Positions 53,933 through 64,000 of a DNA stretch of 64,000 nt are shown piece after piece (position 1 is the stretch's first letter; each line of letters begins with the position of its first letter). Source of the stretch: Candidatus Helarchaeota archaeon. GTDB taxonomy: Archaea > Asgardarchaeota > Lokiarchaeia > Helarchaeales > RDOG01. Below the pieces are notes generated by a model. That model was not told the origin of the DNA and ran no database searches. It saw only the letters and a list, made by a program, of their open reading frames with translations. The position numbers and the translations under genes were made by a program. The DNA lies in assembly GCA_019058315.1 (NCBI GenBank), contig JAHPZH010000005.1:32001-96000 (forward strand), read 5' to 3'.

Positions 53933-54451
53933 TTGGAGAAAATAATTTATAAAATTCTTTTATTAGGTGATCCTGGAGTAGGTAAAACAGCTCTTATAAC
54001 TCAATATATTGATAATAGATTTATAACTGATTATAAAGCCACTCTTGGATTTGATATCTTTATCAAAAAAATTATAGGATCCAAAGCAGAATTTTCATTA
54101 GCAATCTGGGATCTCGCGGGACAAGAGAAATATACATCCTTAAAACAATCATATTATGAAGGTGCCCAGGGAATTATTATGGTATATGATGTAACAGACC
54201 GAGAAAGCTATAAAAATATAATACAGTGGTTAACAGAATTGCAAAAAGTAGTAAAAACAATTCCTATTATGTTAGTAGGAAATAAAATTGATTTAACTGA
54301 CGAAATTAAAATCAATACAGAGGATGGGCAACGACTTAAAACAAGAATTAAAGCAATTAATTTTTATGAGACTTCAGCAAAAACTGGACATAATGTTAAT
54401 ACAATTTTTGAAGAACTTGCAGATATTATTAATAAACATTCATCGATATAG
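53933..54451 (+). CDS. Rab-like small GTPase
   Basis: G1 GDPGVGKT, G2 YKATLG, G3 WDLAGQE, G4 NKID, G5 ETSAK; no C-terminal Cys prenylation motif. Confidence 0.95.
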   Translation: MEKIIYKILLLGDPGVGKTALITQYIDNRFITDYKATLGFDIFIKKIIGSKAEFSLAIWDLAGQEKYTSLKQSYYEGAQGIIMVYDVTDRESYKNIIQWLTELQKVVKTIPIMLVGNKIDLTDEIKINTEDGQRLKTRIKAINFYETSAKTGHNVNTIFEELADIINKHSSI

Positions 54452-54513
54452 TGTATTTAAAATAAAGCTACATAAATAAAAAATTTTATAGAAGATTAAC
54501 AAAATATTAGGGG

Positions 54514-54906
54514 TTGAATTTAGTTTTAGAACACGACATTTCCTACTATTGCAAAAAATTTAACTGTGGAAAATGCTGTGAAAAGGGTTGGGATATCTTT
54601 GTTACTGAATCTGATATAAGAAAGTGGGAGGAAAAAAAACCTGAAATCTTAAATCAAATAACAACTAAAAATATAAATGGAATAAGAAAAAAATTGCTTA
54701 AAAAACAACCAATCAAACTGCTAGATGGAAAAATACGTCAATTATGTGTGTTTTATGACTTTGAAAAAAAATGTACTATACACGATGTAAATCCTGAAAT
54801 ATGTAAGAAATTTTCGTGTTTGCATCATGTCTATTTCATTTTTCAATTTTTTAATAAAATTTCTGAATTAATAGAAGAATCTGATAAGAAAATGTTGAAC
54901 TCTTAA
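54514..54906 (+). CDS. YkgJ family cysteine-cluster protein
   Basis: CKKFNCGKCC...CVFY..KKCTIHDVNPEICKKFSC. Confidence 0.85.
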   Translation: MNLVLEHDISYYCKKFNCGKCCEKGWDIFVTESDIRKWEEKKPEILNQITTKNINGIRKKLLKKQPIKLLDGKIRQLCVFYDFEKKCTIHDVNPEICKKFSCLHHVYFIFQFFNKISELIEESDKKMLNS

Positions 54907-54927
54907 GTAAGTTCAAATTTAGGGCGT

Positions 54928-57588
54928 ATGGCTTATATGAAAGATGAACTTCGAGAAGAAGACTCTAATATCGAGCAAAAATTAAAAGAAACTCAAATTA
55001 AGAGTGAGTTTGATTATCAAAATTTATTTAATGATATTCCTTGTGCTCTTTGGGTTATAAATTTTTCAGATATTAAATTGTACATTGATGAATTACGTAA
55101 TAAAGGAATTAAAGATTTTAGATCTTTTTTTAAAAATGACCCTGATTTTTATTCAACTTGTGTTTCTTTCATGAATATTATAGATGTCAACAGAGCAGCT
55201 ATACAATTATATCAAGCCAAAAACAAGGAGGAAGTTTTACAATATTTAAATGATACCTTTTGCAAAGAATCTTTAGATTTATTTTTAGAAGGAATTATTT
55301 CTATAATTGAGGGTAATTTACCGTTTGAAGGCGAGACTATAATTCAAACTATAAAGGGAAATAAAATTAATGTATTTTATAATTGGTTTATAGCTTCTGG
55401 TTTTGAAAAAAGCTTATCTAAAGTATTTGTAAGTCTCCATGATATTAGTGACCGGAAACAAATAGAATTATTATTACGTAAAGAACGAGATTTAGTCCAA
55501 AAATATCTAGATTTAATTGGAGTTCTTCTTATAACTTTAAATAAAAAAGGTGAAATAACCCTTATCAATCAAAAAGGATATCAGACTTTAGGATATGAAG
55601 AACAAGAGCTTATTGGTAAAAATTGGTTTGATAATTGTTTACCAGAACGAAATATAGAGGAAGTGAAATTAGTTTTTCAAAAATTAGTGGTAGGAGAAAT
55701 TGAACCAGTTGAATATTATGAAAATCCAATTATAACTAAAAGTGGTGAAGAAAGAATTATCGCTTGGCATAATACTGTTTTGACAGATGATATTGGAAAT
55801 ATTATTGGAATATTAAGTTCTGGAGAGGATATTACTGAGCGAATAAGAGGAGAAAAAAAATTAGCAAACCAAATGTATTTAATTGAGTCTATAAATACAA
55901 TATTAAAAGAAGCTTTAAGATTAGACAGTGAAATAAATGTTGCCAAAATGTGTCTAATTTTTGCTGAGGAGTTGACGAATAGCAAATTTGGCTTTATTGG
56001 TGAAATAAATGAAGATGGATATTTCGATACTATTGCTTTAAGTAATCCAGGATGGGAGGCGTGCACCATGGAAAAAACCGCTGCAATAAAATTACTTAAA
56101 AACATGGAGATTCGCGGCATTTGGGGGGAAGTTTTAAAAAGTGGGAAAACTTTAATAGCAGATGATCCCGAATCTCATCCTTCAAGTGTTGGTACTCCTG
56201 TTGGTCACCCAAGATTAACAAGTTTTTTAGGAGTTCCGTTATTTTACGCTGGAAATACATTTGGAATGATTGCTGTGGCTAATAAAGAAATAGAGTATAA
56301 TTCTGATGATCAGCAAGCCATAGAAACTCTTTCAATATCATTCATGGAAGCTTTGATGAATAAAAGAGCAGAAATAAAACTAAAAAATGCCAAAGAAACA
56401 CTTTTAGAAGCGCAAAAAATAGCTCATATAGGAAATTGGGATTGGAATATAGTTACTAATGAATTAAGTTGGTCTGATGAAATTTACCGCATATTCGGGC
56501 TTGCTCCACAAGAATTTGGAGCAACATATGAAGCATTTTTAAATAGTGTCCATCCCGACGATAGAGAATTTGTTACAAAATCCGTTAATGAAGCCATTTA
56601 TGATAAAAAACCTTACTCTATTGATCATCGTATTATTTTACCTGATGGGACACAACGAATAGTACATGAACTAGGTAAAGTTACATTTGATAAGGATGAT
56701 AAACCAATTAGAATGTTAGGAACTGTCCAAGATATCACCGAATTAAAGCTAATTGAAAATGAATTAAAGAAACATAGGGACAACCTTGAAGAATTAGTTT
56801 TAGAGCGTACAAGAGAATTGGAATTAGCAAATAAAAAACTTCAATTAGAAATTGAACAAAGAATAAAAGCTGAAAAAGATCTGGAACTATTCGTATATGC
56901 AGTTTCTCATGAAATAAGAACACCAATTTCAGTTTTAGTCCAATCTATAGATAATTTAGAGGTTTATGGAGAAAAATTATCAGAGAATTTGAAATCAAAA
57001 TTAATAAAAACGATGTCTAGAAATACATCATTATTATCCGAATTAATAGAGGATCTTTTATTAGCTTCAAGGATAGAAAGAACAGAAATAGAATTAAAGT
57101 GGGAAAATTACAAGCTATTCGATGTTTTAAAAGATGTATTAGACCAAATGGAACCTCGTTACAAATCAAGAGGAATAAAAATTGATACAGATGTGGATAT
57201 AAATATTCAATTATTTGGTGATATCAAACGTATTGCACAGATCTTTCGAATATTTATTGATAATGCTATAAAATATTCAAAAGAAAGATCACTGATAAAG
57301 ATTAAAGTATTTAATAAATATAAAGGAGAATTTAATCCGAAATCAATTGATGGTGTTTTAATTCAGTTCATTGATAATGGAATAGGTATTAAGAAGGAAG
57401 ATATCCCTAATTTGTTTAAAAAATATTTCAGATCTAAAGACGCAATGAATATTCCTGGTACAGGTTTAGGACTAACTATTGCAAAAACTCTAACTTATTA
57501 TCATCAAGGAGAAATATTTGTAGAAAGTGATTATGGTAAAGGAACGACTTTTTCCATTTTTCTTCCCAGATTAGAGGAACAACCATAA
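54928..57588 (+). CDS. Cytoplasmic PAS-PAS-GAF-PAS sensor histidine kinase
   Basis: PAS motifs (ELIGKNWF, WSDEIYRIFG..VHPDD), GAF (SFLGVPL..GMIAVAN), H-box VSHEIRTP, N-box DNAIKYS, DNGIGI, GTGLGL. Confidence 0.95.
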   Translation: MAYMKDELREEDSNIEQKLKETQIKSEFDYQNLFNDIPCALWVINFSDIKLYIDELRNKGIKDFRSFFKNDPDFYSTCVSFMNIIDVNRAAIQLYQAKNKEEVLQYLNDTFCKESLDLFLEGIISIIEGNLPFEGETIIQTIKGNKINVFYNWFIASGFEKSLSKVFVSLHDISDRKQIELLLRKERDLVQKYLDLIGVLLITLNKKGEITLINQKGYQTLGYEEQELIGKNWFDNCLPERNIEEVKLVFQKLVVGEIEPVEYYENPIITKSGEERIIAWHNTVLTDDIGNIIGILSSGEDITERIRGEKKLANQMYLIESINTILKEALRLDSEINVAKMCLIFAEELTNSKFGFIGEINEDGYFDTIALSNPGWEACTMEKTAAIKLLKNMEIRGIWGEVLKSGKTLIADDPESHPSSVGTPVGHPRLTSFLGVPLFYAGNTFGMIAVANKEIEYNSDDQQAIETLSISFMEALMNKRAEIKLKNAKETLLEAQKIAHIGNWDWNIVTNELSWSDEIYRIFGLAPQEFGATYEAFLNSVHPDDREFVTKSVNEAIYDKKPYSIDHRIILPDGTQRIVHELGKVTFDKDDKPIRMLGTVQDITELKLIENELKKHRDNLEELVLERTRELELANKKLQLEIEQRIKAEKDLELFVYAVSHEIRTPISVLVQSIDNLEVYGEKLSENLKSKLIKTMSRNTSLLSELIEDLLLASRIERTEIELKWENYKLFDVLKDVLDQMEPRYKSRGIKIDTDVDINIQLFGDIKRIAQIFRIFIDNAIKYSKERSLIKIKVFNKYKGEFNPKSIDGVLIQFIDNGIGIKKEDIPNLFKKYFRSKDAMNIPGTGLGLTIAKTLTYYHQGEIFVESDYGKGTTFSIFLPRLEEQP

Positions 57589-57648
57589 AAAAATATATAT
57601 AGAAAATGAAATGTAATATATCTGATGAAATAAAAAAGGAGTTTCAGC

Positions 57649-58536
57649 TTGAAGCCATTAATACTATGTGTAGATGACAATGAAGATATTTTATTAAATC
57701 TACGGTTAACATTAGAATTTAATGATTATGAAGTAATCACGGGAAAAAATGGCATAGAGGGTATAATCATATTATCCGAACTCGGGCGACTTCCAGACAT
57801 CATAATAAGTGATATAATGATGCCCGAAATGAATGGATATGATTTCTTTAAAAAAGTTTCTGAAAACTCGAAGTGGAATCGCATTCCATTTTTATTTTTA
57901 ACAGCTCGAACTTCTCCAACAGATGTTAGATTTGGCAAAATGTTAGGTGTTGATGATTATCTTACTAAACCCTTTAAAAAAGAAGATTTGATGGCCATAA
58001 TTGCTGGAAAACTTGCTAGAAGAAGAAAAACAGAAGAAGTTAGTGAAAAAGTTGAAGAAGTTCTCTCCTCTTTAAAAATTGATGAAAAACCTTCAATCTC
58101 TATTGAAGAAAAATTTTTAGTAAATTTATTATTAGTGTTTTGGGACGATAAAACGGGTCCTAGGGTTTTAAATTACTATCCAAAAGACATTAAATTACCT
58201 TTTTCTGTTGATAAAATAGGTGTTCAATTATATAATTCTATAGTTTCTATTTATGGACAAGGAAAAGTTGCTGAAGCTCAAGGTATATTATTAAATATAA
58301 AAAATATCGAGAGGGATGGTTTTATTTATTTTGATTCATATCCAGATAGTTCAATCAGAGGAGGTGAACAACAATATATGTTGGGGGTTATTGCTCCAAA
58401 GATTAATTATTTTGAATCTTTAAAAATTGGTGAACGCTTTAAACATATATCTTCACATATTAAATTAAAGGAAGATTGGGATTTTAAAAGTCATTGGGAA
58501 GAAATTGCAAATCTTTTATCAACTCCTTCACTGTAG
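57649..58536 (+). CDS. Response regulator with C-terminal uDENN/longin-like output domain
   Basis: Receiver VDD, ISDIMMP (phospho-Asp), FLTA, KP. C-term LLLVFWDDKTGPRVLNYYP...DSSIRGGEQQYMLGVI. Confidence 0.85.
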   Translation: MKPLILCVDDNEDILLNLRLTLEFNDYEVITGKNGIEGIIILSELGRLPDIIISDIMMPEMNGYDFFKKVSENSKWNRIPFLFLTARTSPTDVRFGKMLGVDDYLTKPFKKEDLMAIIAGKLARRRKTEEVSEKVEEVLSSLKIDEKPSISIEEKFLVNLLLVFWDDKTGPRVLNYYPKDIKLPFSVDKIGVQLYNSIVSIYGQGKVAEAQGILLNIKNIERDGFIYFDSYPDSSIRGGEQQYMLGVIAPKINYFESLKIGERFKHISSHIKLKEDWDFKSHWEEIANLLSTPSL

Positions 58537-58668
58537 ATAAAATAATCTTCATTTTTAAGATTTATAATTCTTAATCGAATGTTTCGAGTAATATAAATAC
58601 ATTTTAATAACCTTGTTTTTATTTTCTATAAGGTTGAACTATCTAAAGAAAAACAAAGGTAATAACAA

Positions 58669-58956
58669 ATGATGACAAAACAAGATTTTGAGATATATTT
58701 AGATTATATGATAGATTATTACGGAGTGGAAAGATCAGAATTACGAATATCGGCTTATAAGGTGCAAGGTGATGATAGCTATGAATTTTTCGAGAGTGCT
58801 AGAATAATTTCGATTTTAGAGTCAGGAATTATGGTTTGGAAATATGAGGATGAGGAAGAAGAGGAAAATGAGTCAGCATTCGTCTCATGGTCCGCCATAG
58901 ACGAAATTTCAATAATGCTAAGAGAAGTCGATGAAGATGAAGAATATGAAGATTAA
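58669..58956 (+). CDS. Small acidic hypothetical protein
   Basis: 95 aa, D/E-rich; AAGGT SD-like motif upstream. Confidence 0.65.
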   Translation: MMTKQDFEIYLDYMIDYYGVERSELRISAYKVQGDDSYEFFESARIISILESGIMVWKYEDEEEEENESAFVSWSAIDEISIMLREVDEDEEYED

Positions 58957-58961
58957 TTTTT

Positions 58962-59888
58962 TCAATCCTTTCTACTTAATAAATTTTCAGCTTTATAGTG
59001 TATAATTGTTGCTCCATGCTTATAATATTCTTTTAATGTTATCCAATTTTTTGAAGGATATTCAAACTCTTTAAGAGATCCAAGTATAGAAGAACCAAGC
59101 CAAGAAGAATATTGTTCAGCTTGAGTGATTTTAATAGGAAAGGTCGCTAAATTTTCTAATTCCTTTTGTAATCGTGCTTTCATACCCTTAATTTTTAACC
59201 CTGATACTATTATGTTCTTGGATAAATCTTCTCTAATAGTTGAATCTAGTTTCATTAGGGTATCAAAAATTTCTACGTCCAAAGGTTTTATCTTATCTTT
59301 ACCCGTCATTTTAGGTTTAAAATAGATTTCTGGAGCTAAAAATAATTCATCTAATTCGAGTGTAGTACCATCAGGTAATGTATAAGATTTTTTACTACTT
59401 TCCTTATCAGGATCTAGTGCTACAAAACAAAGTTTTTCGCGAATATCTCTTAAAATTTCCCTTTCTGCTGAAGTACGAAAATCATAACTCTTTTTTTTTA
59501 GGATCTTTTGTAGATAACTCGTTACATCTTCAATTCCTAAATCTATTTTTTTGATAAAATCAGTTAATGGGTAAGAATCCCAAACTGGTACGATATAAGT
59601 TGGATTTTTTAACCTAATAACTAACCCAGTAGTTTTTCCAACACACATTGCATCTGCCAAAGCTGCATTGACTAAAAGTATAGCCGGAATATTAAAATCT
59701 TCAAATAGAAAGCTACAAATCTTTTCCCTTTGTGACCTAGAAGTTAGTGGATGCTCGATAAGGATTAATCCGTGTTCAGATGGATCGATTTTTAAATCAT
59801 TATAGAAAATATAATGAACAAATTTCTTTATAGCATTAAAATCGACTATTTCTTCATTAATTATTGGAAATGTATTTCTTAAAACCAT
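58962..59888 (-). CDS. Divergent, N-terminally truncated actin-family protein
   Basis: FYNDLKIDPSEH, REKI..FLFEDFNIPA, TSAEREILRDIREKLCFVALD, SYTLPDG, YSSWLGSSILGSL, WITLKEY..HGATIIHYK all match actin from about residue 65 onward. Confidence 0.92.
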   Translation of the reverse strand: MVLRNTFPIINEEIVDFNAIKKFVHYIFYNDLKIDPSEHGLILIEHPLTSRSQREKICSFLFEDFNIPAILLVNAALADAMCVGKTTGLVIRLKNPTYIVPVWDSYPLTDFIKKIDLGIEDVTSYLQKILKKKSYDFRTSAEREILRDIREKLCFVALDPDKESSKKSYTLPDGTTLELDELFLAPEIYFKPKMTGKDKIKPLDVEIFDTLMKLDSTIREDLSKNIIVSGLKIKGMKARLQKELENLATFPIKITQAEQYSSWLGSSILGSLKEFEYPSKNWITLKEYYKHGATIIHYKAENLLSRKD

Positions 59889-59894
59889 AAGATT

Positions 59895-60914
59895 TCACCT
59901 CAAAAATTTTTGTAACAACTCTTTCATACTCTTCGGAAGTTGTCCATTAGATTCTAAATCTAAAATAAAATCTTCTACAAGATCTACTTGGCTTAGTGCT
60001 ATGGCAACAATGAGGTCTGGAATGTCTGGAGTATTTTCCAGCATAAAATGTTCTCCTTGCGTGATATTTGCAATTTCTTTAAAGATTTTTTCAGTTTTAC
60101 TATCTTTTACAATTTGTATAGTGTAAACTTTAACCTCATTAGAAGCTAACTTTTTTGATTCTTCTCTCCAATTCAATTTCTTTGGACATTGGGAAGGATC
60201 GTGTGGGGGAGCGTCCGCGATTAATATTGCGATCTTTTTAACATTTACCCATTGAAAATCTTGAAGAGAGCTTAATGCATCCTCAACCGCCTCTGGAATA
60301 TCTCCCCCACCATCTGCAGTCCATTCCTTTATAAAACTTGTTAGTTCTGAATAATATTGGGATTCTGTAAACGGGTAACATTTTAGTAAATAAGAACTTT
60401 CTTCGTCACAATGATCACGATAGGTTAAGGCACCAATTCGAACTCCTGGAATTTTTTCTGATAGAAAGTAAAGCATTCTAGCAATTTCCTTTTTTATGGC
60501 CCCAAGAGCAGATCCCATAGAACCTGTAGAATCAGCCACTACAACTAAGTCAAGCATTCCTAAAGATTCAATCTTTTCTTTTATCATTCTACACATATCT
60601 TTGTCATTTAAAGATTCCATAAAAGCTAAAGCTCGTTGATAAGCCTTGTAAGCATAACCCATCTTTTTTATTGATTCAAATTCTCTAGCAGCCTGTAACA
60701 TTGTTTTTCCGGCTTTTTCAGGTTCTCCTTGTTTATCTTGTAATGATGCTATCGAAACTAGAGTAATTACGGCTTGTAGCTTTAGATTTCGATTAATAAA
60801 TGTTTCACGTAATTTCATATAATTATTAATAGCTTTTTTCCAAGCTTTATTTTCCATTTTCAGGCAAATTTTATCCGAAATCGCTTTCAATTCATACTCA
60901 ATTTCACTTAACAT
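59895..60914 (-). CDS. TPR/SNAP-like helices + VWA domain protein (paralog B)
   Basis: LDLVVVADSTGSM MIDAS, YRDH, GGGDIPEAV, ILIADAPPH. ATG 60914 aligns with the paralog start. Confidence 0.88.
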   Translation of the reverse strand: MLSEIEYELKAISDKICLKMENKAWKKAINNYMKLRETFINRNLKLQAVITLVSIASLQDKQGEPEKAGKTMLQAAREFESIKKMGYAYKAYQRALAFMESLNDKDMCRMIKEKIESLGMLDLVVVADSTGSMGSALGAIKKEIARMLYFLSEKIPGVRIGALTYRDHCDEESSYLLKCYPFTESQYYSELTSFIKEWTADGGGDIPEAVEDALSSLQDFQWVNVKKIAILIADAPPHDPSQCPKKLNWREESKKLASNEVKVYTIQIVKDSKTEKIFKEIANITQGEHFMLENTPDIPDLIVAIALSQVDLVEDFILDLESNGQLPKSMKELLQKFLR

Positions 60915-60936
60915 TCCATTATCACAATCCAAGGAA

Positions 60937-61965
60937 TCATATTAATTCTTTAAGGAGCTCCCTTTTACTTTCTGTGAGTTTTCCTTCAGATTCTATATCA
61001 ATAATAAAATCTTCTGCTAAATCAAATTGATGTAATGCTATTGCTACGATTAGATCTGGTAAATCAGCTGTGTCGGATAAAAGAAAAGATTTTGATTCTG
61101 TTATCCTAGCAATTTCTTTGAAACTTTCTATAGTTCTCACATCATTACCACAAATCACAGAATAAACTTTTATTTCATCATTTGCTAATTTTGCAGAAAT
61201 TTTTTTCCAGTCTAATTTATTAGGACATTTTTCAGGGGGGTGTGGGGGTTCATCAGCTATTAATATTGATATTTTTTTAACAGATTCCCATTCGTAACCT
61301 TTTTGAAGGTAGTCTAATGCGTCTGCAACTGCCTCACCACCATCTCCACCCCCACCATCAGGCACCCAGCTATCTACAAAAGAAACCAATTTGGCTATTT
61401 CAGAAGATACTTGTTCAATGAATGGTTGAGCTTTAATCAGATAAGAAGTATTTTCGTTACAGTGGTCTCGGTAAGTTAAAGCACCTATACGAATGCCTGG
61501 GATTTTATCTGACATCTTATATAGCATTTTCGCTATTTCTTTTCTAATAGAATCAAGACCACTTCCCATCGATCCTGTAGAGTCGATCACAATTACTAAA
61601 TCTAGCATTCCGAGAGATTCTATTTTCTGCTGAATATTTTTTACTTTACCAATTTGATCACATGATATCATAAGGTCTAGAGCTCTTTGATATGCCTTGA
61701 ATGCATAACCCATTTTTCTATGTTCTTCGAATTCATTAGCAGCACTTAACATAATATTTCCAGCTTTTTCGACCTGACCAATCGTTTCTAACAACGAAGC
61801 AATACTCACAAGCGTTAAAGTGGCTTGAGAGTTTAATTTAGCTTCAAGAAAATGCTCACGTATTCTCTCATAGTCTTTAATTGCAACGATCCAAGCTTTA
61901 TTGCACATATTAAAATGAATTTCTTCTGATAATGTATTCATTTCATATTCTATTTCTTTTAGCAT
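60937..61965 (-). CDS. TPR/SNAP-like helices + VWA domain protein (paralog A)
   Basis: LDLVIVIDSTGSM, YRDH, GGGGDGGEAV, ILIADEPPH. Confidence 0.88.
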   Translation of the reverse strand: MLKEIEYEMNTLSEEIHFNMCNKAWIVAIKDYERIREHFLEAKLNSQATLTLVSIASLLETIGQVEKAGNIMLSAANEFEEHRKMGYAFKAYQRALDLMISCDQIGKVKNIQQKIESLGMLDLVIVIDSTGSMGSGLDSIRKEIAKMLYKMSDKIPGIRIGALTYRDHCNENTSYLIKAQPFIEQVSSEIAKLVSFVDSWVPDGGGGDGGEAVADALDYLQKGYEWESVKKISILIADEPPHPPEKCPNKLDWKKISAKLANDEIKVYSVICGNDVRTIESFKEIARITESKSFLLSDTADLPDLIVAIALHQFDLAEDFIIDIESEGKLTESKRELLKELI

Positions 61966-61981
61966 TTTGAATTACAGACCT

Positions 61982-64000
61982 TTACTCTATTTGGAGTATA
62001 TTTACTGAAGAGTTTGCTCTTAAATCTACATTATACATTGGATAACCCACCGTCTCCTTTACAATTATTTCTCCCGGTTTTGTTGCAGTCATATTATAAG
62101 TTAAGGTTATTGATCCATCCAATTCATTTAGATAAAGATTCAATTTGTCACTAGTTAATTTATATGATGTGATTTGATATTCTTCCACCAGTTTCTTTAA
62201 TGATTGTTCCACAACTAAAAAACCAGCGGGGATAGGTTCCTCTATTGCAAACATTCCCTGTTTTTCGGTTGTTGTTATATTAAGTTTAACACTTATGGAA
62301 TCATTCTGTGCAACTTTATTTGAACTGAAATCTCTTGTTATTGTTAACATTTTGGGTTTTAGAAGATATTCTTTAGGATACCATGCTTCTATTGTTAAAT
62401 CGTACACTAATAAGCCCTCACCATTCTTTTCTAATATCAATTTATTTTCAGAATTTAGATTATCTAACGGAATATTTCTCATATCATAAACAATATGTTC
62501 TAAAGTGTCTTCATTTACTTCGAATTCTCCTATTACCTGTTTATTAAAAATTGCCTGTGTTAGAAAATTCGTTTTTTCGCTTCTTGCGCAATTAGAAAGA
62601 CAAAGAATAGCGGCTATAGTATCTGATGTTGTACTCCATCCACCACCTTTAGCGCGATTAGCCATAATATAATTTAAGACCCTTTGAACATTTACTGGAT
62701 CTCCTCCTGCAATATTTAAAGCTAGTGCAGCATAAGCTGTAGATTCAACTTTTCCAGCTAGTGATGAACCAACGTCCCAATAGACGAAATCGCCTTCATT
62801 ATGAGCTGATGTATTTAATTTTTCTATAAGGAGGTTCAATTCCTTATTGTATTTATTTGACCCTTCTTTAATGATGTCGATTATTAAATAGGCTAATAGG
62901 TTTGGGTCGTTCGTTCTCTTTGAGGAGAGGATAGCGTTTGATATAATATTTTCTAAAGCTTTGTCAATAATTTCTTGATTTACGTTATATCCAGCTTTTT
63001 TAGCCTCGAGTAATGCTTGTATAACATACGCTGTACAGAAGTCTTTCCCTCGTCTATTTGATTCCCAAGTCCCTTGAGAAGTTTGTATTTTCTTTAATTC
63101 TTCTATTGCAGCATTAATTAGTTTTTTTTCTATAAAAAATCCCGAGTTAATTGTATAAGCCAAACCAAACAATACATAGGCTGTAGTGAAAGGCTCTGAT
63201 TGCTCATTTCCCCAATATCCCCAACCACCACGGTCATTTCGAAGACTTATTAATTGTTGAATACCCTTAGTTGTCATTTCTTCAAATTGTTCTTGGAATT
63301 TGTTAGTAAGCATATTATTTTCTTTTAGCAGATTGTAAACTAGAACGTTAGGTAAAAATTTCGACATAGTTTGTTCTACACAACCATGAGGATATCCTAA
63401 TATCGATTCTAATCCATCCATGCAACCCATTTGATAACCAGGTATCAATGAAAGGCGTGCTTTATAAAAAATTGCGTCTCTTGGTATAGTTGGAGATATA
63501 TTAATAATTTCATCTTCCAAAATAAGTCCCGTATATCTGAAAATATGAGGTTCTCCTTTAGGATTTATTTTTATTTTTTTTCTTAAGACATCAATATGCT
63601 TCGGTGTTTTAGCTTCGATCCAAAATGTCGCCTCACCTGGATTAATTGCTTTCAATTTGAAATCGAGACGTTTCATCCCATTTGCAGGAACGAGAATATT
63701 CCCTTTCGGTATGTCAACTTTTAATTTATATTTATCAGCATTTAAATTAACGTTACATTCTAAGTTTTCTTTTGTTAGATTTGTCAAAATTATTCCAAGT
63801 TGAATATTATCTCCATGAGTTAAAACTGGTGGGATATCAAGTTTTGCAAAAAAATCTTGTTTAACTGTAATTCTATGAGTTCCCATACCTATCTCACAAT
63901 CTTTTGTACTTGCAAACACTGTCAACTCATGACTTGTTATCTGATCTGGTAGCTCTGTTTCTAGCATAGATTGACCATCTGATTCTAGGAATGGAATCCA
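61982..64000 (-). CDS. Alpha-2-macroglobulin / thioester-containing protein (5'-partial)
   Basis: Frame open to the window edge (WIPFLESDGQSMLETELPDQIT). FFAKLDIPP.L..GD, YPHGCVEQTMS thioester (63371-63385), GGWGYW, VESTAYAALA, GGWSTTSDT, IEEPIPAGF, YPMYN. Confidence 0.93.
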   Translation of the reverse strand, partial: WIPFLESDGQSMLETELPDQITSHELTVFASTKDCEIGMGTHRITVKQDFFAKLDIPPVLTHGDNIQLGIILTNLTKENLECNVNLNADKYKLKVDIPKGNILVPANGMKRLDFKLKAINPGEATFWIEAKTPKHIDVLRKKIKINPKGEPHIFRYTGLILEDEIINISPTIPRDAIFYKARLSLIPGYQMGCMDGLESILGYPHGCVEQTMSKFLPNVLVYNLLKENNMLTNKFQEQFEEMTTKGIQQLISLRNDRGGWGYWGNEQSEPFTTAYVLFGLAYTINSGFFIEKKLINAAIEELKKIQTSQGTWESNRRGKDFCTAYVIQALLEAKKAGYNVNQEIIDKALENIISNAILSSKRTNDPNLLAYLIIDIIKEGSNKYNKELNLLIEKLNTSAHNEGDFVYWDVGSSLAGKVESTAYAALALNIAGGDPVNVQRVLNYIMANRAKGGGWSTTSDTIAAILCLSNCARSEKTNFLTQAIFNKQVIGEFEVNEDTLEHIVYDMRNIPLDNLNSENKLILEKNGEGLLVYDLTIEAWYPKEYLLKPKMLTITRDFSSNKVAQNDSISVKLNITTTEKQGMFAIEEPIPAGFLVVEQSLKKLVEEYQITSYKLTSDKLNLYLNELDGSITLTYNMTATKPGEIIVKETVGYPMYNVDLRANSSVNILQIE

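Follow-up and report, generated by a model that had tools for sequence, protein, structure and literature searches.

A macroglobulin-family thioester protein of a Helarchaeota archaeon carries part of a naturally split actin and may form a decoy-bait protease trap

The 64,000-nucleotide stretch of contig JAHPZH010000005.1 from Candidatus Helarchaeota archaeon analysed here (the window) carries near its right end a cassette of four genes, which encode an alpha-2-macroglobulin (A2M)-family thioester protein, two proteins with a VWA domain (VWA1 and VWA2) and an actin homologue that lacks its N-terminus (actinC). Actin was found to be divided between the first and the last of these proteins: a piece corresponding to residues 7-67 of the genome's own lokiactin is inserted into the bait region of A2M, and actinC supplies the remainder. 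In our judgement the chances are about even that the cassette is a cytosolic decoy-bait protease trap. The decoy reading is suggested by the fact that the operon also encodes the exact complement of the actin piece, as a protein of its own that is enzymatically dead. An earlier note on this DNA had proposed that the pseudo-actin acts as decoy or scaffold, and this proposal is now much better founded, the missing actin N-terminus having been found in the A2M bait region.

The A2M gene continues past the window to window-equivalent position 66934 (L002:3983-8935) and encodes 1650 aa from a TTG start. The decisive feature, the actin piece within A2M, is located 223 bases beyond the right end of the window; reading the N-terminus from the contig to the right, as the earlier note had advised, revealed the bait insert and no signal peptide. 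Pfam domains of the full-length protein, all scoring above the cut-offs, are MG2 (54.7 bits), A2M_BRD at residues 494-611 (44.1 bits), A2M/MG7 at 976-1064 (54.3 bits), TED_complement, the thioester domain (TED), at 1172-1447 (98.4 bits) and bMG10 at 1539-1634 (37.5 bits). An insert of ~355 residues (612-967) lies between A2M_BRD and MG7 and consists of a helical spacer, then lokiactin residues 7-67 and finally a Gly/Ser-rich linker. Within it, residues 844-901 match Pfam Actin at profile positions 5-55. A2M residue 968 aligns with residue 730 of human A2M, the bait of which spans residues 690-728. Since the insert follows A2M_BRD and ends at the equivalent of human A2M residue 730, the actin piece sits in the bait.

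The genome carries one canonical lokiactin (C5:296580-297686), and pairwise alignment to it defines both pieces. The piece in A2M corresponds to residues 7-67 at 67% identity, which comprise strands beta1-3 and all of subdomain 2 including the D-loop, while residues 2-297 of actinC correspond to residues 68-375 at 45% identity. Both pieces meet without gap or overlap: the A2M piece ends with LRG (G67) and actinC opens with M-VLR, equivalent to lokiactin V68-L69-R70. ActinC (308 aa, P0001; 58962..59888, minus strand) lacks actin residues 1-67, and its Pfam Actin match (6e-55) spans positions 65-408 of the 410-position profile. Because its reading frame (310 aa in total) is open for only two codons upstream of the ATG, the truncation is real and represents a natural split, not a mis-called start. 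Thus, no single polypeptide of the cassette holds a complete actin fold, profile positions 5-55 being present in A2M and 65-408 in actinC. Outside the cassettes the best matches are Asgard actins. As expected from the earlier note, which had regarded the actin homologue as catalytically dead, the nucleotide-binding motifs are degenerate: the phosphate-1 and phosphate-2 motifs are lost (DNGTG to ELGSN; DSGTG to RL-KN, with one residue deleted), and SGGST, the adenosine motif, has become SG-SE in the consensus of the pseudo-actin family. Judged by these motifs the pseudo-actin is nucleotide-dead. A further frame of the same genome (G000:C5:148334-149449, L005/L006; 575 aa), with two separate stretches of similarity to the actin profile (5-204 and 256-407), encodes a divergent actin-like protein with an insertion and is distinct from the canonical lokiactin.

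Twelve loci were read and grouped into four subfamilies. Further Asgard assemblies, which bear the labels Lokiarchaeia, Freyarchaeota, Helarchaeota and Promethearchaeota, also encode long proteins combining A2M and Actin matches. These source labels of homologues and the relatives agree with an Asgard origin of the window. A conserved A2M, VWA and actin neighbourhood, which the earlier note had recommended seeking in Asgard genomes, indeed exists: in the main family the order A2M (with the actin N piece), VWA, truncated actin recurs in every readable locus (L030, L032, L034, which is G178, L035 and L037), while L039 and L041 are partial loci of this set. Flanking genes vary from locus to locus. 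All ten close VWA orthologues fall in cassette loci, and every one with readable context lies between A2M and the truncated actin, in line with the idea of one conserved multi-protein module; the next matches are bacterial VWA domains of ~32% identity. Searching 1.84 billion representatives with a helical-spacer profile added three more divergent groups: G058 together with L059; L058; and L057, which is truncated at the end of its contig. The actin gene of G058 and L059 follows A2M directly, and no VWA gene is present; in L058 a 311-aa TPR-like/alpha-beta protein is encoded between A2M and actin. The G058 A2M (L029:8291-13051, P0007) has an extra helical tail of ~100 residues past the MG8-type domain, ending with KGGI, which might stand in for the missing VWA or TPR partner. 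Among 400 Asgard species genomes three carry the cassette, each from a different family (1 of 135 genomes in one family, 1 of 6 in another), which makes it rare and patchy.

The position of the split differs between the subfamilies. The A2M piece ends at about residue 67 and actinC begins at about 68 in the main family; the corresponding positions are ~49-52 and ~54 in G058, ~53 and ~54 in L059, and ~60 and ~62-63 in L058. There are thus three split points overall, and the halves are complementary wherever both genes are readable. No argument for a joint function of the two pieces as one actin is stronger than this co-variation across two genes. The chain of G058 and L059 departs from the actin fold within the D-loop and continues directly into MG7.

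Actin that has been cut in the D-loop remains folded, and as protease-nicked actin keeps its fold, trans-complementation of the pseudo-actin halves is plausible. A two-chain model of actinC with A2M residues 836-907 reached an ipSAE of 0.89, compared with 0.00 for the best of three controls; this mark was reached by 58 of 80 solved complexes and by 2 of 110 mismatched pairs. At least 93% of contacts are shared by the three runs, the partner has a pLDDT of at least 73, and strand beta1 of the A2M piece is paired with actinC residues 39-44, as in actin. Modelled alone, the actin piece with its linker is disordered (pLDDT 22-42). The complex model shows likeness to the actin fold, not binding. 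Since actin structures are solved, the pass may stem from the memory of the model, a point to be counted against the trap.

Selection on the pseudo-actin was assessed as identity to the lokiactin consensus per residue set, for the main family and for G058. Identity is highest in subdomain 2 (0.79 in the main family, 0.81 in G058) and its D-loop (0.87 and 0.80), followed by the tip of subdomain 4 (0.64 and 0.50). The whole pseudo-actin reaches 0.47 and 0.39, the nucleotide site 0.30 and 0.20, and the barbed-end face 0.27 and 0.24. Outside subdomain 2 every 37-residue window shows 0.61 identity or less. Lokiactins themselves are evenly conserved, with 0.82-0.92 in every residue set. In G058 residues 54-70, although encoded by the actinC gene, remain 16/18 identical to lokiactin; what is constrained is therefore the structure of subdomain 2, irrespective of the gene that encodes it. 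The segment GYPKYTSIMTDV is near-invariant throughout the subfamilies, including those in which the strands ahead of it are divergent.

Of the 41 residues identical between the bait piece and the lokiactin of the genome, 19 use the same codon, and 19.8 are expected from codon usage. As codon sharing equals this expectation, synonymous sites are saturated, and the similarity reflects old purifying selection; recent gene conversion from lokiactin, which had been considered, is ruled out by codon sharing at chance level. These data also bear on the view that the cassette is a decaying relic, in which an actin paralogue was broken by rearrangement and its pieces are without function. The loss of the nucleotide-binding motifs would fit a relic, but the reading frames are intact in 12 loci, the halves are complementary despite three split points, gene order is tight and conserved, and amino acid identity has been maintained over saturated synonymous sites. 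We regard decay as the least probable of the explanations weighed here.

A more serious competitor, which we nevertheless hold to be unlikely, is docking onto or capping of the cytoskeleton. According to this, the reassembled pseudo-actin would bind with its pointed-end face to lokiactin monomers or filaments at their barbed end; its own barbed-end face being dead, it would cap them and tether A2M to the cytoskeleton, and the thioester would covalently fix the complex or a nearby target. The pointed-end face (subdomain 2, D-loop and, less strictly, the subdomain 4 tip) is indeed what has been kept, whereas degradation is greatest on the barbed-end face and the nucleotide site has been lost. 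Moreover, the C piece is conserved over its whole length within the pseudo-actin family (0.64-0.84 per 30-residue window), so the barbed-end face, dissimilar to lokiactin as it is, could have a new partner. Docking leaves unexplained, however, why the actin piece occupies the bait position in every subfamily and why the chain of G058 and L059 exits inside the D-loop, an opened D-loop being a poor filament contact.

Thioester proteins (A2M, C3, TEPs) are known as extracellular or periplasmic molecules of immunity and protease control. In the 11 actin-bait A2Ms examined, all of which keep CxEQ (GCVEQ at residues 1184-1188 of the protein described here), the maximum KD19 over the first 70 residues is 0.63-0.97, so none has a hydrophobic N-terminus; VWA1, VWA2 and actinC likewise lack an N-terminal hydrophobic segment. 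Cytoplasmic location of all three kinds of protein is the simplest reading, because the cassette proteins lack such a segment. A secreted A2M with cytosolic partners, named in the earlier note as grounds for abandoning a joint module, was not seen: A2M, VWA and actinC are all devoid of a signal peptide.

Two other Asgard A2Ms have a maximum KD19 of 2.4-2.7, that is, an N-terminal signal anchor. They would be compatible with a conventional secreted inhibitor that, like bacterial A2M, acts on a broad range of proteases and in which the actin pieces are incidental, as would the complete MG/TED/MG8 architecture and the intact CxEQ of the cassette protein. The lack of a signal peptide or anchor in all 11 actin-bait A2Ms and in the VWA and actinC proteins of this genome, the absence of a PBP1C-type neighbour at the loci read and the strong constraint on the actin pieces speak against it, and we consider this explanation highly improbable. 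The two anchored proteins (L042:5362-11604, 2080 aa; L043:5009-11035, 2008 aa) have an intact CxEQ and an ordinary aromatic/Gly-rich bait gap of ~100 aa without a Pfam-recognisable insert, and each gene is preceded by a small gene for a helix-turn-helix-like protein (weak ArsR or TrmB matches). An extension of the decoy idea to these proteins fails, given their signal anchors and ordinary ~100-aa baits without a recognisable insert.

The preferred reading, a cytosolic decoy-bait trap, would operate as follows. The A2M and actinC pieces would reassemble in trans into one nucleotide-free pseudo-actin on the bait site, which would serve as a scaffold displaying a faithful replica of the exposed D-loop of actin. 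In eukaryotic actin the D-loop is hypersensitive to proteases, and the bond Gly42-Val43 lies within it by standard actin numbering. An actin-specific bacterial protease cuts actin only at Gly42-Val43 (PMC7311988), and a Legionella effector cleaves actin (PMC5298343). A viral, bacterial or endogenous protease attacking the D-loop would cut the A2M chain in its bait and release a conformational change upon which, by analogy with other A2Ms, the thioester would capture the attacker. The trap would in this way guard the actin cytoskeleton from within the cytosol, and the VWA protein would probably be a third subunit or an adaptor for activated A2M. The more specific claim of an Asgard guard system in the cytosol, whose complement/A2M-type thioester protein would employ a trans-complemented actin replica as an integrated decoy to detect and covalently trap effectors attacking the cytoskeleton, is put forward tentatively and is judged less likely than not.

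Several points weigh against the trap. We know of no protease partner or target for it, nor, to our knowledge, is there a precedent for a thioester trap in a nucleophile-rich cytosol. Only the D-loop and the linkers of the reassembled pseudo-actin would be accessible to proteases, strands beta1-3 being buried. Docking onto actin barbed ends would account for the conservation pattern just as well. No defence-island context was found around the cassette, and none of its four proteins matched a PADLOC family at E-values up to 0.01. Furthermore, the role of the VWA proteins is not explained by a trap, and one subfamily lacks a VWA gene.

VWA2 (P0002 from its Met7; 59895..60914, minus strand) combines TPR-like repeats with a VWA domain (Pfam VWA, 9.3e-12). 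Its start was taken as the ATG, the open reading frame list having placed it at an upstream TTG at 60932. VWA1 (P0003; 60937..61965, minus strand; Pfam VWA, 7.9e-11) is a divergent tandem paralogue. Both carry a DSTGS motif resembling the metal ion-dependent adhesion site (MIDAS), encoded on the minus strand at 60519..60533 in VWA2 and 61570..61584 in VWA1 as read from the translations. The description of two paralogous VWA proteins with DSTGS and without signal peptide thus holds by Pfam, translation and hydrophobicity. The motif follows DxTGS, Thr replacing the first Ser of the MIDAS consensus DxSxS (which also includes a distal Thr and Asp), and residues D134, T136, G137, S138, D211 and D240 are invariant in the 10 orthologues. 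VWA1 is 52-57% identical to all other VWA copies, and VWA2 groups with the single-copy orthologues (identity matrix and tree); tandem copies occur only in this genome, the other VWA-bearing loci having one. In an AF2 model of VWA2 six N-terminal helices (pLDDT above 90) form three TPR-like helix pairs, followed by a generic VWA fold. Foldseek returned only generic VWA neighbours for this model, namely VWF A1, integrin I-domains and TFIIH p44, with a probability of 1.00 to VWF A1 and integrin I-domains and a TM of ~0.63 normalised by target. An atlas search with the N-terminal domain gave TPR clusters at 0.89, which serves as a lead.

The earlier note had drawn an analogy to complement. In a cascade of this type the VWA proteins, like factor B or integrin I-domains, would bind and activate the thioester protein for opsonin-like tagging. 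Known contacts between TEPs and VWA domains, those of C3b with factor B and of iC3b/C3d with the CR3 I-domain, use the MIDAS. The resemblance lies in the pairing of a thioester protein with a VWA-domain gene partner, the two genes being adjacent in three of the four subfamilies, and in the conserved MIDAS-like residues, with D, T, G and S of the motif invariant. Nevertheless, the analogy is not borne out. The VWA proteins have no protease domain by Pfam or model and so differ from factor B with its serine-protease module, and Pfam detects neither an anaphylatoxin nor a C345C domain in A2M. The subfamily of G058 and L059 is without a VWA gene; in L058 the gene between A2M and actin lacks a recognisable MIDAS and matches the VWA family only weakly (hhalign probability 26%). 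A complement-like cascade is therefore judged very unlikely.

VWA proteins of ~300 aa occur in seven genomes of one other Asgard family (L047-L053, L055:9797-10699) and are 36-40% identical to the cassette VWA domain. The single VWA-only locus examined (L055, G319) is stand-alone, beside genes for a metallo-beta-lactamase and OsmC, with no cassette. Possibly these homologues are relatives of the source of the cassette VWA domain.

Regarding the other parts of the bait insert, the helical spacer modelled alone within the insert is helical (pLDDT 80-92), and a structure search with it found only generic helical-repeat neighbours, the best Z of 9.9 being too low to be informative for helical proteins. 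The linker (L002:6044-6220, minus strand; window-equivalent 64043-64219) contains GPSVVHRCF, which is close to the C-terminus of the genome's own lokiactin, GPSVIHRCF. The match scores 30.8 bits, a value reached in 8 of 300 shuffles and thus modestly above chance, and related forms occur in two other orthologues; it is plausibly a copy of the actin C-terminal tail restricted to part of the cassette family. A second linker segment, FTKDYKRTIG, resembles switch I of the genome's small GTPases, but mimicry is not established, its 28.2 bits being reached by 42 of 300 shuffles and so not exceeding chance. The related DYKRSIG occurs in one orthologue, and a relic of an actin C-terminal segment is an alternative reading of this motif.

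The closest solved relatives of A2M are human A2M (6tav, E 4e-34), CD109, A2ML1 and Anopheles TEP1 (down to E 4e-27). For its C-terminal half (P0005), compared with the PDB, metazoan matches are stronger than enterobacterial ones (E 1e-16), a ranking of scores and not a phylogeny. With the thioester A2Ms and TEPs the cassette protein shares the MG array, the bait-region domain, MG7, the CxEQ TED, an end of MG8/receptor-binding type and an insert at the bait position. It differs in being archaeal, in lacking the signal peptide typical of the known members, in having a bait of ~355 residues, with a helical domain and 61 residues of host actin, instead of a short unstructured stretch, and in needing a second polypeptide to complete a fold. 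The bacterial A2Ms (Salmonella, 4u48; E. coli ECAM/YfhM) resemble it as prokaryotic proteins of monomer type with a thioester and an operon partner, but they match less strongly in sequence (E 1e-16 to 3e-15). They are, unlike the cassette A2M, periplasmic lipoproteins, and their partner is PBP1C, whereas VWA and pseudo-actin take this place in the cassette. No PBP gene was present in any cassette locus read; the neighbouring genes encode a CoA-transferase and other metabolic proteins.

Compared with lokiactin, from which both of its pieces derive, the pseudo-actin is naturally split with one half embedded in A2M, has lost its nucleotide motifs and has a diverged barbed-end face. In concept, though not by homology, the arrangement recalls the integrated decoys of plant NLRs, in which a piece of a host protein targeted by attackers is built into a sensor and kept similar. 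The families and read-outs are unrelated, and the cassette decoy is split over two genes and would be part of a protease-triggered covalent trap. In full-text literature searches no paper was found that connects A2M or thioester proteins to Asgard archaea, or a bait region to actin. The CAGE complex, described in a preprint, has a different fold and is unrelated.

All four genes lie on the minus strand in the order A2M, VWA1, VWA2, actinC. They are tightly packed with intergenic gaps of 16, 22 and 6 nt, so that the coordinates bear out the earlier description of co-oriented genes with small gaps. GAGGTGA stands directly ahead of the actinC ATG. The window covers the C-terminal 672 residues of A2M (61982..64000, minus strand), with MG7, CUB, TED and MG8. 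By Pfam, the A2M (MG7) domain, the first past the bait region, is encoded at 63743..64000, the TED (TED_complement, 8.9e-29) at 62594..63421 and the MG8 or receptor-binding-type domain (bMG10, 1.4e-9; A2M_recep, 5.8e-4) at 62033..62320; translation places the thioester motif CVEQ (residues 1185-1188) at 63371..63382, all on the minus strand. Bit scores for this part are 101 for TED_complement, 51.8 for A2M and 38.7 for bMG10; the two middle proteins score 45.9 and 42.9 for VWA and actinC 186.9 for Actin, all above the curated cut-offs. Together with the translation these scores confirm an A2M-family protein with an intact GCVEQ. An NCBIfam scan of the cassette proteins gave sub-threshold matches only, and a scan for sigma-70 promoters and terminators was set aside as uninformative, the models being inapplicable to archaea. 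On the opposite strand, small open reading frames and a response-regulator-type gene (window positions 53933-58956) converge on the actinC end and lie outside the cassette.

Actin is a hallmark common to Asgard archaea and eukaryotes. If the decoy-bait reading is true, the cassette would represent a new bait design, in which a folded two-chain decoy of host actin takes the place of a loose loop, and the first decoy-type sensor of such kind in archaea known to us. The natural split of actin at three positions is of interest for actin folding and protein engineering, and the three-gene system is small and amenable to direct in vitro study. On the same condition it would hint at attack by proteases or effectors on the actin cytoskeleton of Asgard archaea. 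Were the guard-system claim true as well, the cassette would indirectly indicate that parasites target this cytoskeleton, and it would be a prokaryotic forerunner of both thioester-based innate immunity and decoy-type sensing.

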